Sequence record: NC_022968.1
Source: Escherichia phage 4MG
Length of the DNA stretch: 64,000 nucleotides
Strand: one strand, 5' to 3'
A model generated the notes under the pieces. The model did not search any database. It saw nothing but the letters and a program-made list of their open reading frames with translations, and had not been told where the DNA came from. The first letter of the stretch is position 1; each line of letters begins with the position of its first letter. Positions 14,822 to 26,183 of the stretch are shown one piece after another. The position numbers and the translations under genes were made by a program.

Positions 14822-14826
14822 ATTAA

Positions 14827-14854
14827 CCCGCTTCGGCGGGTTTTTTCGTTTTTG
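14827..14854 (+). terminator. rho-independent terminator
   Basis: CCCGCTTCGGCGGG hairpin followed by TTTTTTCGTTTTTG. Confidence 0.8.
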
Positions 14855-14857
14855 TGC

Positions 14858-14886
14858 TTGACATCAATTTTACCGAGGATTATTAT
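14858..14886 (+). promoter_or_regulatory. sigma70-type promoter
   Basis: TTGACA - 17 nt - TATTAT, about 20 nt upstream of the AAGGAG/ATG of the next gene. Confidence 0.7.
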
Positions 14887-16747: not shown

Positions 16748-18001
16748 ATGAAAGTATATCTGGTAGGTGGCGCAGTACGTGACGGTTTGCTTGGTCGTGA
16801 AGTTCATGACCGTGACTACGTGGTTGTGGGTGCAACGCACGAAGAAATGATCAATAAAGGTTTCACCCAGGTTGGCGCTGCTTTTCCAGTATACCTGCAT
16901 CCTGAAACCAACGAAGAGTATGCTTTGGCCCGTACCGAGCGCAAGACGGGCAACGGTCATACAGACTTCGAAACATTCTTCAGCCCGGACGTGACTTTGG
17001 TTGAGGATTTGTCTCGTAGAGACCTGACGATCAACGCTATGGCTAAAGATTTGGAAACAGGAGAGATCATCGACCCGTTTGGTGGTCAGTATGATATCGA
17101 AAAGAAAATTCTGCGTCATACAACGCTGGCATTCCTTGACGATCCTCTCCGCATCCTGCGTGTGTACCGATTCAAAGCACAACTGGGCAAAGACTGGGAA
17201 ATCCATGCCGACACTAAAGCTCTGTGCTTTAATAACCGTTATGGGCTGTCCCACATCAGCGGTGAGCGTAAGTGGAAAGAGATGGAGAAAGCCCTTGGTT
17301 CTGACAACTTCCGGGCATATGCTGAAGCAATGGCAGAGCTTGGTGAGTTGCCAGAACTGGATGCCCTGCGTGGAGTAGCACAACCACCAGAACACCACCC
17401 GGAAGGTGATGCTTTCGTTCATACACTGCTGTGTTTGGATGTGGCTGACCTTTACGAGGCTAACCCGTATACCAAATTTGCAGTGCTGTGCCATGACTTC
17501 GGTAAGGCGATCACTTTCCGTAAATACGGCAATCTGATCGGGCATGAAGAGGCAGGTCTGGAACCAGTACGTACATTGTGTGAGCGTATCCGTGTGCCTA
17601 ACGACTTCCGTGATGTTGCACTGTACGTAACAGAGCACCACACCCGTGTTCACTGTATCGCCCCTCGTGGCGGCAATAAGGGTGCAAAGCCACGGTCACT
17701 GATGAAACTGTTTGAGGCAGCAGGTAATGTGGCGAGCGCCAAAACAGCGATGAAGGTTGGTTCTTTGGCAGATGCGTGTTTCTGCGATGCAAAAGGTCGT
17801 GGTCCAACAAAAATTGCAGAGCCGTATCCGCAGGGTTATGTTCTGATGGATGCTTTCCGTTGCATGAAGGCTGTTGACACTAAGGTGATCTCTGCTGAGT
17901 GCCTTGCAAAAGGTAAGAGCGGTATCGAGATTGGTGAAGCTATTCGTGTTGCACGTATTGATGCTATCCGTAGCATCACCCAGCGTGAAATTAAGTGGTA
18001 G
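16748..18001 (+). CDS. cca: CCA-adding tRNA nucleotidyltransferase with HD domain
   Basis: MKVYLVGGAVRDGLLGREVHDRDYVVVG ... RRDLTINAMA ... HD-domain residues; close resemblance to E. coli Cca recalled from memory. Confidence 0.85.
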   Translation: MKVYLVGGAVRDGLLGREVHDRDYVVVGATHEEMINKGFTQVGAAFPVYLHPETNEEYALARTERKTGNGHTDFETFFSPDVTLVEDLSRRDLTINAMAKDLETGEIIDPFGGQYDIEKKILRHTTLAFLDDPLRILRVYRFKAQLGKDWEIHADTKALCFNNRYGLSHISGERKWKEMEKALGSDNFRAYAEAMAELGELPELDALRGVAQPPEHHPEGDAFVHTLLCLDVADLYEANPYTKFAVLCHDFGKAITFRKYGNLIGHEEAGLEPVRTLCERIRVPNDFRDVALYVTEHHTRVHCIAPRGGNKGAKPRSLMKLFEAAGNVASAKTAMKVGSLADACFCDAKGRGPTKIAEPYPQGYVLMDAFRCMKAVDTKVISAECLAKGKSGIEIGEAIRVARIDAIRSITQREIKW

Positions 18002-18993: not shown

Positions 18994-19208
18994 CTATTGA
19001 ACTTGTAATTTACCTGTGCATCGGTATACTGTGCATGGTCGCTGTAATAGCTGCTGATTGGTTCTTGGCAGATAGATTATCTGGACAAGGAATTGGTATT
19101 GGGCTGCTGGCTGTTGTGTTCTGGCCTTTATTTGGGATTTGCCTTATTGGTGGCCTGATAGCTGCCCTGTTTGAAGAAGATTTTGTAATCGCAAGGAGAA
19201 AGAGATGA
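18990..19208 (+). CDS. small membrane protein
   Basis: Two hydrophobic segments; ATGA overlap. Confidence 0.5.
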   Translation: MTIELVIYLCIGILCMVAVIAADWFLADRLSGQGIGIGLLAVVFWPLFGICLIGGLIAALFEEDFVIARRKR

Positions 19209-19693
19209 AGACACGCATGTACTGCGTAGTAAACCAATATATTGCTGGCATCCATGCCGGGATTCAGTCGGCACACGCGATGTCGGAGATGTTCCTTGAT
19301 TACTCTCAGCGCCGTAACAATGCCGGAAACCTGTTGTGGGACTGGGCTGATCGCGACAAGACCGTAATCGTGCTCAACGGTGGCTACCAGTCTTCATTGC
19401 AGGAACTATGTGAGAAACTGAAGCCTCTGAGCGGCACTTACCCTTGGGCTTCCTTCTGTGAGGAACAGGATGCCCTGAACGGTGCGATGACCGCAGTTGC
19501 TGTTGTGCTGCCTGAGTATATGTACTCACCGCAATACGCAGAAGTTGTTGACTTGGTGAAATTACCAGGTTACAATCCACCACAAGTTGCTAATCAGTAT
19601 CGTGACGAGATGGGAAATACCATCCACAACTATACGCAACCTGAAAAAGACCTGATCACAATGATCAAATCATTCCGACTGAAAGGAGAATAA
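19205..19693 (+). CDS. hypothetical protein
   Basis: ATGA overlap; RBS AGGAGAAAG. Confidence 0.5.
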   Translation: MKTRMYCVVNQYIAGIHAGIQSAHAMSEMFLDYSQRRNNAGNLLWDWADRDKTVIVLNGGYQSSLQELCEKLKPLSGTYPWASFCEEQDALNGAMTAVAVVLPEYMYSPQYAEVVDLVKLPGYNPPQVANQYRDEMGNTIHNYTQPEKDLITMIKSFRLKGE

Positions 19694-20209: not shown

Positions 20210-20547
20210 AAGACGTTCGTGGTGAAACCCTGAATGTTGGTGATGAGGTTTATATCTACTGGGGGTATAACCAATTGCGCCCAGCCGTGGTAAAGCAGAT
20301 CACTAAAAACAAGGCCAAAGTGTTTTGTGACGGGTCACTCTCCAAATGGAAGTCAGGTGAGTGCATGATCAAGGCAGAAGAACCAACAGGCTACTACCCT
20401 GACGAGGTGATCATGCTTCTTGAAGAGATTCGTCGTATTCGGGATGAGGCTCCGATGAATAAAGAGGGTCTTCCAACAAAACAACTGTGCCAGGGGCTTC
20501 TGAATTTTTGGGATATGAAGCGCCCAATGAAACTGGTTACCTCTTAA
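20206..20547 (+). CDS. hypothetical protein
   Basis: ATGA overlap. Confidence 0.45.
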   Translation: MKDVRGETLNVGDEVYIYWGYNQLRPAVVKQITKNKAKVFCDGSLSKWKSGECMIKAEEPTGYYPDEVIMLLEEIRRIRDEAPMNKEGLPTKQLCQGLLNFWDMKRPMKLVTS

Positions 20548-20555
20548 GGAGAGAT

Positions 20556-21629
20556 ATGAAAACTTTTGATATGATGCGATGCTACTCAGGTAGCCTCGCG
20601 TATGGGACTAATCTCCCAACATCGGATGTTGATATCCGTGGTCTGTTCTGTGCGGAACCTAAGTTCATCCGTACTCCATTCTTCAATATCAAAGAGCAGA
20701 CGCTCGCTGATGAAGAGGATGGTAAGATCTACGAACTGACAAACTTCATGAAGTTGTTTGTGGAGATGAACCCCAACATCATCGAACTGATGTTTGTTGA
20801 TGAAAAAGATATCATTTCCAGTTCAGACGCTTACGCATACCTGCGTACAATGGCACCTGAGCTTATGTCAAGTAAGGTTGCATTTAGCTTCTCTGGTTAT
20901 GCTATGGCACAGCTTAAGCGTATCCGTGGTCATGATAAGTGGATCACCAATCCGCAACCGGAGGAAAAGCCAACGCAAAAGGACTTCTTCCGTTTAGTCC
21001 ACAACTACAGTGAGCACCCTTTCCTTGCTGGTGTAATTAAGCACGAACGCTTCATGGAGGCCATGACAAATCTGAACGATATGTGCGTCCTCGTTCCTTA
21101 TGGCAACGACATCTATGGTGTGATGGAGAACTTCAGTAGCTCAGGTATGTTCAACGCAGATGGTTCTATTCGTCATGTTGACTACCAGCAACTGTCTGAT
21201 ACAGACAAGCGCCGGAAACCTGTGTTCATTGTAAAGTATCTGGCAGAAGAGCACAAACAGGCAAAGGAGAAGCACCGTAACTACTGGGCCTGGAAGCAGA
21301 ACCGTAACGAAGTGCGTCATCAGCTTGAAGTGAACTTTGGGTACGACACCAAACACGCCATGCATCTTGTACGTCTGATGCGCATGGCTGAAGAGATCCT
21401 GACTGATGGAAAGGTTCTGGTGAAGCGTCCTGACGCTCAAGAACTCTTAGATATCCGTGGTGGCAAGTGGACTCTTGACGAGCTTCTTAAATGGGCTGAT
21501 GAAAAAGATCATTACATTCGCGAAGTTCTGTACAAAAAGACAGACCTGCCGAAGTACACCGATCTTGAGTTAGCTTCTCGTGTTCTCATGACAGCGCAGG
21601 ATATCTGCTGGGCGAGTATGGATGTTTGA
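20556..21629 (+). CDS. Pol-beta superfamily nucleotidyltransferase (minimal NTase or CD-NTase-like)
   Basis: SGSLAYGTNLPTSDVDIRG = GS-x9-13-DxD nucleotidyltransferase motif; RBS TAAGGAGAG. Confidence 0.55.
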   Translation: MKTFDMMRCYSGSLAYGTNLPTSDVDIRGLFCAEPKFIRTPFFNIKEQTLADEEDGKIYELTNFMKLFVEMNPNIIELMFVDEKDIISSSDAYAYLRTMAPELMSSKVAFSFSGYAMAQLKRIRGHDKWITNPQPEEKPTQKDFFRLVHNYSEHPFLAGVIKHERFMEAMTNLNDMCVLVPYGNDIYGVMENFSSSGMFNADGSIRHVDYQQLSDTDKRRKPVFIVKYLAEEHKQAKEKHRNYWAWKQNRNEVRHQLEVNFGYDTKHAMHLVRLMRMAEEILTDGKVLVKRPDAQELLDIRGGKWTLDELLKWADEKDHYIREVLYKKTDLPKYTDLELASRVLMTAQDICWASMDV

Positions 21630-21834: not shown

Positions 21835-21996
21835 ATTTTCAGGAAAAATGCTTGAGCTTGTTGCTGAGTGGATGGATGACTATAAACGTCAACGTAGCTT
21901 CAGCGACGAGCCTGAGAACTGGCCTTATGAGCGCACCCAAGAAGACTGGATGAGTGACTTCTTTGTGTGGCTCCAGTGTAAGGGGTATCCGGTATG
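21821..21996 (+). CDS. hypothetical small protein (58 aa)
   Basis: Below track cutoff; AGGAGAAGAA RBS. Confidence 0.35.
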
Positions 21997-22224
21997 AGCT
22001 TCGGGACACTAACAGCAGAGCAGGCACAGATCCTGCAAGACCGTTATAAAGAACAGCAAGGTATTGAGAAGGTCGTATGGCCCTCACCAGGTAACTCCGG
22101 TGTTATCAAATGCCTGCATGACCAATGTCCTAATTGCGGGGGAACAGGTGTTCGCAAAGACGGCTTAGGACTGTGCTTCCACGGGATAGCCTGTCCTTGC
22201 CCTAAATGCAGTTTTACTTGCTGA
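21994..22224 (+). CDS. Cys-rich small protein
   Basis: CPNCGG and CPCPKC cysteine clusters. Confidence 0.45.
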   Translation: MSFGTLTAEQAQILQDRYKEQQGIEKVVWPSPGNSGVIKCLHDQCPNCGGTGVRKDGLGLCFHGIACPCPKCSFTC

Positions 22225-23851: not shown

Positions 23852-24330
23852 TTAGACTGTTTGTAAAAGACACCAGCCACGAGGTGATAAGCAAACTCCC
23901 CGGAATATCTAGTGCTGTTGCACAGGTAAAGTCCGGGGTTTGTGGGGCAATTGTTTTTGTCGTGAAGTCAAAACACAACATTGATTCTGAAGGCATACTC
24001 AATCCAAGATTGGTTATCACAAAGAGTGCTGGTAAGAATGAGCAGATATTTATGATAGCCACGAGTAAGGATGAGAAGATTTGGATTCATCCGGACGAAG
24101 TTTTCATTGGTAACACCCAGGTCTACAACCGGGACATGTTCTTTGATGCTTCTGCTCCAACTGAGGAAGAAGTCCAAATGCTGAGAATGGCTAAAGGTGC
24201 GGATTTGGATGCCCTTATGAAGGCATTTGGGAAAGTCCCCGGAAGGATTATGGAAAGGATAATGTCCGGGACTTTTGTGGAAGAGTACACAGCGGTAACC
24301 AAAGAAAAGGTAATCGTTTTAATGGGATAA
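23836..24330 (+). CDS. hypothetical protein
   Basis: ORF, last plus-strand gene before a terminator. Confidence 0.5.
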   Translation: MQDEMIRLFVKDTSHEVISKLPGISSAVAQVKSGVCGAIVFVVKSKHNIDSEGILNPRLVITKSAGKNEQIFMIATSKDEKIWIHPDEVFIGNTQVYNRDMFFDASAPTEEEVQMLRMAKGADLDALMKAFGKVPGRIMERIMSGTFVEEYTAVTKEKVIVLMG

Positions 24331-24356
24331 CCCGCCTTGAGCGGGTTTTCTTTTAT
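24331..24356 (+). terminator. rho-independent terminator
   Basis: CCCGCCTTGAGCGGG followed by TTTTCTTTTA. Confidence 0.75.
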
Positions 24357-24975: not shown

Positions 24976-25003
24976 TTGACATCATCTTTATTCCTGCCAT
25001 AAT
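24976..25003 (+). promoter_or_regulatory. sigma70-type promoter
   Basis: TTGACA - 16 nt - CATAAT upstream of the GHKL ATPase gene. Confidence 0.6.
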
Positions 25004-25034
25004 GGTTGAACACAAACCGTTTCAAGGAGAAACC

Positions 25035-26183
25035 ATGAAAAGCATTAAACTGAGCATTGCACCAACCTACGTAGCCCATTGGTCATGGTGGGAGGGCGTT
25101 CGTGAACTCATTCAGAACGCCATTGACGCTGGTGACCACGAAGTTGTGTTCATTAAGGACACCATTTCAATTGCATCCTACGGTGGTAAGCTGCCTATCC
25201 AATCCCTCCTGATGGGTAAGACCACTAAGGAAGATGATGATACCAAGATCGGTAAGTTTGGCGAGGGGATGAAGGTAGGTTTCCTGTGCCTGTTACGTGA
25301 AGGTGCAGACATTACCATGTACAACGGTCGAGATCTGTGGAAACCAGAGCTTGCGATGGATGATGTGTTCGACGAGAAGGTTCTCTCTGTCAATATCGAG
25401 GAGGGGCGTTTCCCTAATCGCTCTGAGGATTGTGTTACCATCCATATCAAGAATGTTCCTGAACACGCCATACGTGAAATAAAGAACAACTATGCCCCGG
25501 AACGTGCTAATCTTGAGGTGGTGTTTGAAGCAGAGGGCTATGGTAAGGCCTACGCGAAAAAGAACGAGCGTGATTACAAGGATTGCCGTCTATACGTTAA
25601 TGGCCTGTACGTAACCACCGTTGAGGGTAAGTACAAGTTCGATTATGACTTCCCGGCAGACCGATTCACTCTGGATCGTGACCGTAACCAGGCAAGTGAG
25701 TTCGAAGTTCGCTGGAATGCAACCCGTCTTCTGTCACAATCTGACGATGTGCTTATGCTGGCAGACCTGGGTGTTGGTCAGTACGATGACCTTGAGCACT
25801 TCGATAGTCAGAACGAGTCAAGCTATTATGTTCGTGGTTATGAACAGGACACTCTCGAAGAACGGGCGGTATCCATCTTCCGTGAACAAAATGGTTGGAA
25901 GGCATTCCCTATCAATGCCAATTGGTCTGATAGTCGTAAACGATTAGTTACTGAAATGGCGATCAGCCACGGCAAAACTCCGGTGACAGTCAAGAAAGCA
26001 GCCTACCAGATGCTGAAACACGAGTTTTCTGTGCCTGAGGAGATCAACGAAATGGTTGAATTCAAGGCTCTTAGCTACCTTGAGAAATTCCTTGCAAAAC
26101 ACGGTCGAAAACTGTACAGTAAGCCGCGTAAGGACCTGGAAAAAACAATCCATATGCTAAAAGTGGCTAAAGGGGAAGCATGA
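25035..26183 (+). CDS. GHKL-superfamily ATPase (Hsp90/MutL/MORC-like)
   Basis: N-terminal ELIQNAIDAG matches the Bergerat N-box E-x3-N-x2-D-A; GKFGEG matches the G2 box; RBS CAAGGAGAAACC. Confidence 0.5.
   Translation: MKSIKLSIAPTYVAHWSWWEGVRELIQNAIDAGDHEVVFIKDTISIASYGGKLPIQSLLMGKTTKEDDDTKIGKFGEGMKVGFLCLLREGADITMYNGRDLWKPELAMDDVFDEKVLSVNIEEGRFPNRSEDCVTIHIKNVPEHAIREIKNNYAPERANLEVVFEAEGYGKAYAKKNERDYKDCRLYVNGLYVTTVEGKYKFDYDFPADRFTLDRDRNQASEFEVRWNATRLLSQSDDVLMLADLGVGQYDDLEHFDSQNESSYYVRGYEQDTLEERAVSIFREQNGWKAFPINANWSDSRKRLVTEMAISHGKTPVTVKKAAYQMLKHEFSVPEEINEMVEFKALSYLEKFLAKHGRKLYSKPRKDLEKTIHMLKVAKGEA

Follow-up and report, generated by a model that had tools for sequence, protein, structure and literature searches.

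The plus-strand open reading frame (ORF) at 20556-21629 of the 64,000-nucleotide stretch of Escherichia phage 4MG analysed here (sequence record NC_022968.1; hereafter the window) is a genuine gene, which begins with the ATG at 20556, closes at 21629 and encodes a nucleotidyltransferase (NTase) of 357 amino acids plus the stop codon, as supported by the ORF list, by Pfam and PHROG profiles and by the ratio of nonsynonymous to synonymous substitution rates (dN/dS). An initial annotation made from the letters of the DNA had recognised the gene correctly, with a length of 358 amino acids in which the stop codon was counted, and had described its product as a stand-alone enzyme of unknown substrate. 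Neither part of that description is supported. Profile matches assign the protein to the RlaP family (phage subfamily PHROG 388), already labelled 'nucleotidyltransferase' in related phage records, two members of which extend RNA 3'-OH ends (PMC12776372). Moreover, in the clade of the window the gene is selectively linked, across diverged phages, to the genes of a CCA-adding enzyme and of a protein resembling peptidyl-tRNA hydrolase 2 (PTH2).

Gene, family and predicted structure

A Shine-Dalgarno-like AAGGAG, read from the sequence 4 nt ahead of the ATG (20546-20551, plus strand), overlaps the TAA (20545-20547) of the preceding gene, the ATG of the NTase gene lying 9 nt past that stop, and at its other end (21629) the NTase gene overlaps the following one, whose ATG is at 21622. 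A longer, GTG-started ORF from 20487 was rejected, since it overlaps the upstream gene and is not preceded by a ribosome-binding site, and the homologues begin at the ATG. The source is a Seunavirus-like myophage (Vequintavirinae). The NTase gene shares 88.6% DNA identity, and its product 96.9% protein identity, with a 'putative nucleotidyltransferase' of Enterobacter phage EC152; the gene order around it is the same in EC152 and in Cronobacter phage GAP31, and dN/dS is 0.027 against the EC152 orthologue and 0.047 against that of GAP31. When 1.84 billion representatives of 50%-identity clusters were scanned exhaustively with HMMER, 5,490 relatives of the NTase were detected at E<=1e-3 and 569 at E<=1e-30. 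Residues 11-29 of the protein, SGSLAYGTNLPTSDVDIRG, contain the pattern G12-S13-x10-D24-x-D26, that is, the GS...DxD signature of the DNA polymerase beta (Pol-beta) type that had been pointed out initially, and the catalytic carboxylates, intact in this protein, are conserved across an alignment of 62 sequences of the family (alignment A1). In this alignment G12, S13, Y16, G17, S23, D24, P73, E258, D264, K266 and R273 are invariant, and D26, G29, D55, N72, N74, E77, H270, R291 and D293 are conserved in at least 90% of the sequences. Membership of the family, integrity of the active site and strong purifying selection are firm.

The Pfam family matched is PF10127, RlaP, described as 'RNA repair pathway DNA polymerase beta family' (51.4 bits against a gathering cutoff of 23, E 1.6e-13), and the match to PHROG 388 is full-length (E 6.1e-78, residues 6-355 against positions 39-337 of the 351 of the profile). 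RlaP was reportedly named by Burroughs and Aravind in 2016; its name derives from the association of its genes with RNA ligases. Profile comparison gave no membership of the CD-NTase (cGAS/DncV-like), poly(A) polymerase/Cid1 or aminoglycoside NTase families, all of which had been put forward for checking with the initial annotation. The PolyA_pol head (PF01743) is likewise absent from the NTase, unlike from the product of the neighbouring gene at 16748-18001; the two are distinct enzymes, as had been proposed. PDB sequence searches with the single protein and with a profile of the family found no solved relative, and a BFVD search matched only further unannotated phage NTases.

Phage T4 NrdC.11 (336 amino acids) belongs to PF10127 (PMC12776372), and aligns with the NTase domain of the window protein (24% identity, E 5e-8) as well as in the C-terminal helix bearing the motif D-x-K-x3-H-x2-R. 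Another relative, P0118, is a tandem fusion of an N-terminal canonical short RlaP (PF10127, E 1e-94) and a C-terminal module of the window subfamily, which is 35% identical to the window protein over 339 residues. The presence of two RlaP modules in one protein indicates that the canonical RlaP and the window subfamily are related but distinct branches. The P0118 gene lies on a metagenome contig (L011 8001-9896) with bacterial-type neighbours, and its neighbourhood is uninformative.

An AlphaFold2 model built with alignment A1 (predicted local distance difference test, pLDDT, 95; predicted template modelling score, pTM, 0.88) has three parts, and would bear out the combination of an N-terminal NTase domain and a helical C-terminal domain. 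The former, of the Pol-beta type (residues 1-131; 20556-20948, plus strand), is delimited by the Pfam match at residues 8-124, by A1 and by the model, in which it has strands at residues 4-11, 26-32 and 55-60. It carries, on the same strand of the DNA, G12-S13 (20589-20594), D24 (20625-20627), D26 (20631-20633), D55 (20718-20720), the motif N72-P73-N74 and E77 (20784-20786). In the model the strand of D55 adjoins that of D24 and D26, and in an alignment with MntA D55 falls on its third Asp; the predicted catalytic triad is thus D24/D26/D55, to which E77 adds another conserved acid. A variable, beta-rich middle insert follows (residues ~133-228; 20952-21239, plus strand; modelled strands at 145-150, 177-183, 186-191 and 224-228), which has pLDDT values of 75-85 in parts, is poorly conserved in A1 and is missing from the canonical module of P0118.

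The C-terminal domain (residues 230-354; 21243-21617, plus strand) is all-helical in the model and resembles KNTase-C and HEPN domains. It contains the invariant residues E258, D264 (21345-21347, plus strand), K266 (21351-21353, plus strand) and R273, and the near-invariant H270, R291 and D293. An RNase role of this domain was considered and rejected: the protein has a HEPN motif R-x4-H (R250...H255) whose His is not a conserved residue in A1. Among solved folds the nearest are kanamycin nucleotidyltransferase (KNTase; Foldseek E 0.018), complexes of the MntA antitoxin with HEPN proteins, and HalB, and terminal uridylyltransferase and poly(A) polymerase structures were matched with a probability of 0.04 at most; no structures of cGAS, DncV or OAS are among the top fold-search matches.

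The C-terminal helix is also the site of insertions. In 10 of the 12 relatives of ~700 amino acids (P0002, P0004, P0007, P0009, P0039, P0066, P0076, P0083, P0111 and P0124), 325-364 residues are inserted exactly between D264 and residue 265, splitting the invariant motif GYD|TKH. The insertion begins with Cys and ends with Gly-Asn followed by Thr, Ser or Cys, features by which it appears to be an intein-like element. Inteins are typically placed in functionally critical motifs, and such an insertion would thus place the C-terminal helix in the active centre. P0030 carries a second insertion, located behind residue ~130.

Gene neighbourhood in the window and in related loci

The NTase gene follows two genes whose products would act on tRNA 3' ends. 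About 2.5 kb upstream, on the same strand, 16748-18001 encodes, as initially annotated, a class II CCA-adding enzyme with head and HD domains (Pfam PolyA_pol, E 7.5e-21, PolyA_pol_RNAbd and HD; PHROG 2244, E 1e-145). At 19205-19693 (plus strand), 860 nt upstream of the NTase gene, lies a gene for a protein of 162 amino acids which is tentatively PTH2-like and matches PHROG 3668, 'hydrolase' (E 2e-58). In its family 7 of 10 members match PTH2, and the only meaningful PDB match of the family profile is the archaeal peptidyl-tRNA hydrolase Pth2, 2zv3 (E 0.0026). A PADLOC scan gave no match for either this protein or the NTase.

To find out how far this arrangement extends, the 80 closest loci on viral contigs (NTase 44-100% identical) were compared over 10 kb on each side, with all ORFs clustered. 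Single linkage at 62% identity divided the NTases of these loci into 14 lineages. In seven of them, comprising 19 loci (group A), a CCA-adding enzyme is encoded on the same strand as the NTase and at most 3.7 kb ahead of it, and 14 of the 19 also have the PTH2-like gene, among them L037, L065 and L081. Of the 44-54 clusters present in each of the loci L023, L037, L065 and L081, those of RlaP, the CCA-adding enzyme and the PTH2-like protein are the only ones in common with the window, the exceptions being one additional small shared cluster each in L037 and L065, and the absence of the PTH2-like gene from L023. The three genes are contiguous in L037, and in L023 the gene of the CCA-adding enzyme abuts that of the NTase. 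The linkage of the NTase to the other two is thus selective in the clade of the window.

Six other lineages, with 58 loci of large environmental phages (group B, among L029-L093; for instance L056, L073 and L079), have the NTase gene in a fixed, fully syntenic replication and recombination block, in which a gp32-like single-stranded DNA-binding protein (SSB) and a RecA/UvsX-like recombinase precede the NTase (median gap to the recombinase gene 78 nt), and two small genes and an XPB/UvsW-like superfamily 2 (SF2) helicase follow it. The helicase gene is ~1 kb downstream of the NTase, with clamp-loader-like and DNA polymerase III (Pol III) alpha-like genes further on. In six group B loci a small metallophosphoesterase is encoded just downstream of the NTase. 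In the remaining lineage (group C) the NTase has neither of these two settings. No RNA ligase or tRNA gene was found within 10 kb of the NTase in any of the 80 loci. In the jumbo Cronobacter phage GAP32 a Thg1-like tRNA-His guanylyltransferase, again an enzyme of tRNA ends, is encoded 3 kb upstream of the NTase homologue (L005 2159-2938).

An RNA ligase is nevertheless encoded by the same genome. The IMG/VR contig UViG_2595698946_000001 (148,567 bp) shares an identical stretch of 21,071 bases with the window, position 1 of which corresponds to contig position 84,568. Its region 73036-76088 (L094) encodes a metallophosphoesterase, an Rnl1-type ligase (PF09511), a cREC 'cyclic-phosphate processing' protein and a P-loop kinase (AAA_33). 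This heal-and-seal RNA-repair cluster, also present in GAP31 and EC152, is on the same strand as the NTase gene and ~30 kb upstream of it, or ~8.5-11.5 kb before the start of the window. A 5'-phosphate ligase requires a 3'-OH end, which is the kind that RlaP produces. In the tRNA array of GAP31 (L008 28262-34669) the 3' CCA is encoded by 24 of the 25 annotated tRNA genes, and the phage CCA-adding enzyme therefore looks like an enzyme of repair rather than of maturation.

Two near-identical terminator-like hairpins, each followed by a T-run, bracket the stretch of the three genes at a distance of 9.5 kb from each other: AACCCGC-TTCG-GCGGGTT at 14825-14842 and AACCCGC-CTTGA-GCGGGTT at 24329-24347, both on the plus strand. 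The scan that detected them rendered 19 terminator-like sites in all, against 8.9 expected, and no comparably strong terminator on the plus strand between 14842 and 24329. A promoter-like site, TTGACA-17-TATTAT (11 of 12 consensus positions), was detected by a consensus scan at 14858-14886 (plus strand), although such sites are not enriched over shuffled sequences. From these elements, the genes of the CCA-adding enzyme, the PTH2-like protein and the NTase may belong to one transcription unit starting at about 14858.

The initial annotation had also seen no neighbours of the NTase gene other than genes for small membrane and Cys-rich proteins, which is only partly right, the neighbours upstream being a DUF7205 protein gene, directly before the NTase gene, and the PTH2-like gene. 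Downstream, 21994-22224 (plus strand) encodes a Cys-rich protein of 76 amino acids (PHROG 17149) with the DnaJ-zinc-finger-like motif CPNCGGTG (CxxCxGxG), a protein whose gene recurs immediately after that of the NTase in L037, a locus that is otherwise unrelated. Further on, at 25002-26183 (plus strand), a PHROG 6077 protein of 393 amino acids and unknown function shows a faint likeness to sacsin/HATPase_c_3 and a weak PADLOC match to TmtA (E 2e-4).

Proposed function and alternative readings

Two RlaP enzymes from Pseudomonas, PfRlaP and PaRlaP, both encoded between rtcB and rtcA, have been described by Carruthers, Fatma and Huang (bioRxiv, December 2025; PMC12776372). They add one or two nucleoside monophosphates, from any nucleoside triphosphate (NTP) or dATP, to RNA 3'-OH ends, with a preference for Mn2+ and for the 5' half of a broken-tRNA mimic, and the assayed RlaPs modify neither DNA nor protein, including E. 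coli proteins (PMC12776372). RlaP is also able to restore the aminoacylation of a tRNA that lacks one nucleotide of the anticodon loop before ligation (PMC12776372). Iyer et al. (2021; PMC7824862) described RlaP as the NTase that jumbo phages most often have for restoring ends, where it tracks RNA ligases, and included the CCA-adding enzyme, Thg1 and PTH2 in the RNA-repair repertoire of phages. Both the family and its conceptual role were thus known before this analysis.

Taking these data together with the gene linkage, we lean towards the window protein being a template-independent RNA 3'-end nucleotidyltransferase for tRNA repair during infection. RNA would be its substrate by extension from the two distantly related Pseudomonas enzymes, and tRNA the target by the company its gene keeps; of the substrates initially suggested, nucleic acids are those that our reading would retain. 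An NTP with Mn2+ or Mg2+ would be held by the G12-S13 loop and by D24, D26 and D55, possibly with E77, and one or two nucleotides would be joined without a template, replacing those lost from the 3' end of a damaged tRNA, either at the acceptor end or at the 3' end of a broken anticodon loop. The CCA would then be rebuilt by the co-located CCA-adding enzyme, or the break resealed by the Rnl1-type ligase of the phage, while the PTH2-like protein could clear tRNA ends of peptidyl or aminoacyl groups. In this way translation would be sustained while host tRNA-targeting toxins or defence nucleases act, which would give the NTase a role in counter-defence.

The gene is dispensable in the laboratory, since the T4 segment from nrdC.11 to mobD.3 can be lost (PMC9825161) and the orthologue of Pectobacterium phage phiTE (L006 5920-7047) is a pseudogene. 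The latter, annotated as three ORFs (phiTE_132, phiTE_131 and phiTE_130), has two in-frame stops, one of them at the near-invariant W246, and Gly in place of the near-invariant E77. Such dispensability fits a conditional, conflict-related role.

The NTase gene keeps company with those of a CCA-adding enzyme and a PTH2-like protein, two activities of the tRNA 3' end, so that the point of repair may be the acceptor end. The three proteins could then form a dedicated module for the repair of tRNA acceptor ends, not yet described as a unit, a suggestion that we make tentatively and regard as unlikely. The hydrolase would clear the 3' end of acyl or peptidyl groups, RlaP would restore nucleotides upstream of the CCA, such as the discriminator base, which are beyond the reach of the CCA-adding enzyme, and this enzyme would then remake the CCA. 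If this were so, the module would let the phage withstand defences that act on tRNA 3' ends by trimming, extending or blocking them, and the acceptor end would be a point of repair other than the anticodon loop so far proposed for RlaP.

Several observations weigh against a role in tRNA repair. The match to PF10127 comprises only the NTase half: residues 8-124 align to positions 23-141 of the 249 of the profile, and the window protein leaves its canonical C-terminal half unmatched. The subfamily is remote from the assayed RlaPs, with ~24% identity to the canonical module over only 78 N-terminal residues, and has an extra insert of ~95 residues relative to it. The Pfam PTH2 match of the 19205-19693 protein (E 0.0025) is below the cutoff, the RNA ligase cluster is 30 kb off and not adjacent to the NTase, and a search of the window for tRNA genes found none. 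Of the 80 closest viral loci, 58 have the NTase gene inside the SSB-RecA-helicase block. Moreover, 6 of the 10 long relatives scanned (P0025, P0049, P0060, P0078, P0079 and P0096) carry a C-terminal DEDD exonuclease (Pfam RNase_T) which is nearest to the epsilon subunit of DNA polymerase III (E 7e-21 to 1j53; TIGR00573 'dnaq', 107 bits against a cutoff of 71.5). In P0025 a further ~140 residues past the exonuclease match nothing, and the gene neighbourhood is uninformative.

The last two of these observations are those on which the main alternative is built, namely that this RlaP subfamily acts on DNA or RNA-primed DNA 3' ends in replication, recombination or repair, where the addition of a nucleotide or two might be balanced by a proofreading-type exonuclease. 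In all six group B lineages the NTase directly follows the recombinase, in the company of the SSB and the helicase, six relatives are fused to the DnaQ/epsilon-like exonuclease, and dATP is used efficiently on RNA ends by the Pseudomonas RlaP (PMC12776372). The block, however, is syntenic as a whole, so that it may represent one inherited arrangement rather than repeated selection, and none of its genes is near the NTase in the clade of the window, where the linkage to the CCA-adding enzyme and the PTH2-like protein is the selective one. DnaQ-like DEDDh domains act on RNA too, as the name of the Pfam family, RNase_T, recalls, and DNA is not modified by the assayed RlaPs (PMC12776372). We therefore consider action on DNA ends unlikely for the window protein, while the group B blocks and the DnaQ-like fusions suggest that the RNA-only activity of the two Pseudomonas enzymes may not hold throughout the family.

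That the enzyme modifies proteins or small molecules, as MNT and KNTase do, seems very unlikely; in such a reading it would AMPylate and thereby inactivate a HEPN-type toxin of the host, as an anti-defence measure, or it would modify a metabolite or antibiotic. Its closest solved folds, the KNTase-C/HEPN-like C-terminal domain and weak MntA sequence matches point in this direction, but the structural matches are at the level of the fold only (TM-score 0.2-0.3, 12-15% identity) and the score with the NCBIfam MntA model (13.3 bits) is below the cutoff of 60. At 357 amino acids the protein is not a minimal NTase, no separate partner HEPN gene was called nearby, and its conserved partners are tRNA-end enzymes; E. 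coli proteins, in addition, are no substrates of the assayed RlaP (PMC12776372). The initial annotation had also raised a cGAS/DncV-like CD-NTase that makes or caps a nucleotide messenger, to which interference of the phage with such signals may be added. All that speaks for it is the GS...DxD motif, which is generic and common to all Pol-beta NTases. Pfam gave no CD-NTase, SMODS, Mab-21 or OAS match at E<=1, no PADLOC model was matched, and the folds that come closest are those of KNTase, MNT, HalB and HEPN-type proteins; with the family already assigned to RlaP, we regard a signalling role as extremely improbable.

Comparison with known systems

Taken alone, the gene is an ordinary one, from a well-populated phage family, and the activity of the founding enzymes of the parent family has been published. 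New in this analysis is that one branch of the family keeps the NTase together with a CCA-adding enzyme and a PTH2-like protein in otherwise changed surroundings. The substrate of phage RlaPs bears on how large phages shield translation from tRNA-targeting host defences. A relative of 623 amino acids, P0137, also one of the ten long relatives scanned, combines the NTase with a P-loop kinase resembling APS kinase (PF01583, E 4e-60), an enzyme that phosphorylates a ribose 3'-OH. An RNA 3'-kinase is, according to the RlaP preprint, a still missing activity that would be needed to feed RtcB (PMC12776372). That the kinase domain of P0137 could supply it is speculative.

Class II CCA-adding enzymes and poly(A) polymerases (PF01743) are, as the window protein would be, template-independent Pol-beta NTases acting on RNA 3' ends, but the window NTase has a different helical domain, and the product expected of it is one or two nucleotides of any base instead of CCA or a tail. 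With ANT(4')/KNTase and the MNT-HEPN systems it has in common the combination of an NTase domain with a HEPN-like helical bundle, placed after it or provided as its partner, whereas no hidden Markov model of those families matches it and the substrates differ. The PHROG 388 members of Vequintavirinae and jumbo phages (GAP31_112, PVP-SE1 ADP02562, EC152 WZX10622, GAP32_154 and 121Q 506) belong to the same family, from which the window copy differs in nothing material.

T4 NrdC.11 is, like the window protein, a phage-encoded long form from a lab-dispensable gene, but it represents another subfamily (19% identity overall in A1), and its gene has neither a CCA-adding enzyme nor a PTH2-like protein as neighbour; T4 also encodes Rnl1 and Pnkp. 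The canonical RlaP shares with the window protein the GS...DxD motif, the third Asp and the NP...E motif, and in both cases the genome encodes an RNA repair ligase. In the crystal structure of PfRlaP a C-terminal helical domain forms a cleft with the NTase domain, a build that the window protein may share, its modelled C-terminal domain being all-helical. The window protein is ~100 residues longer, with the beta-rich insert, and has a C-terminal motif, GYDTKHAMHLVRLLRM, that is particular to its subfamily, and its gene is outside an RtcB/RtcA operon and linked instead to those of the CCA-adding enzyme and the PTH2-like protein.

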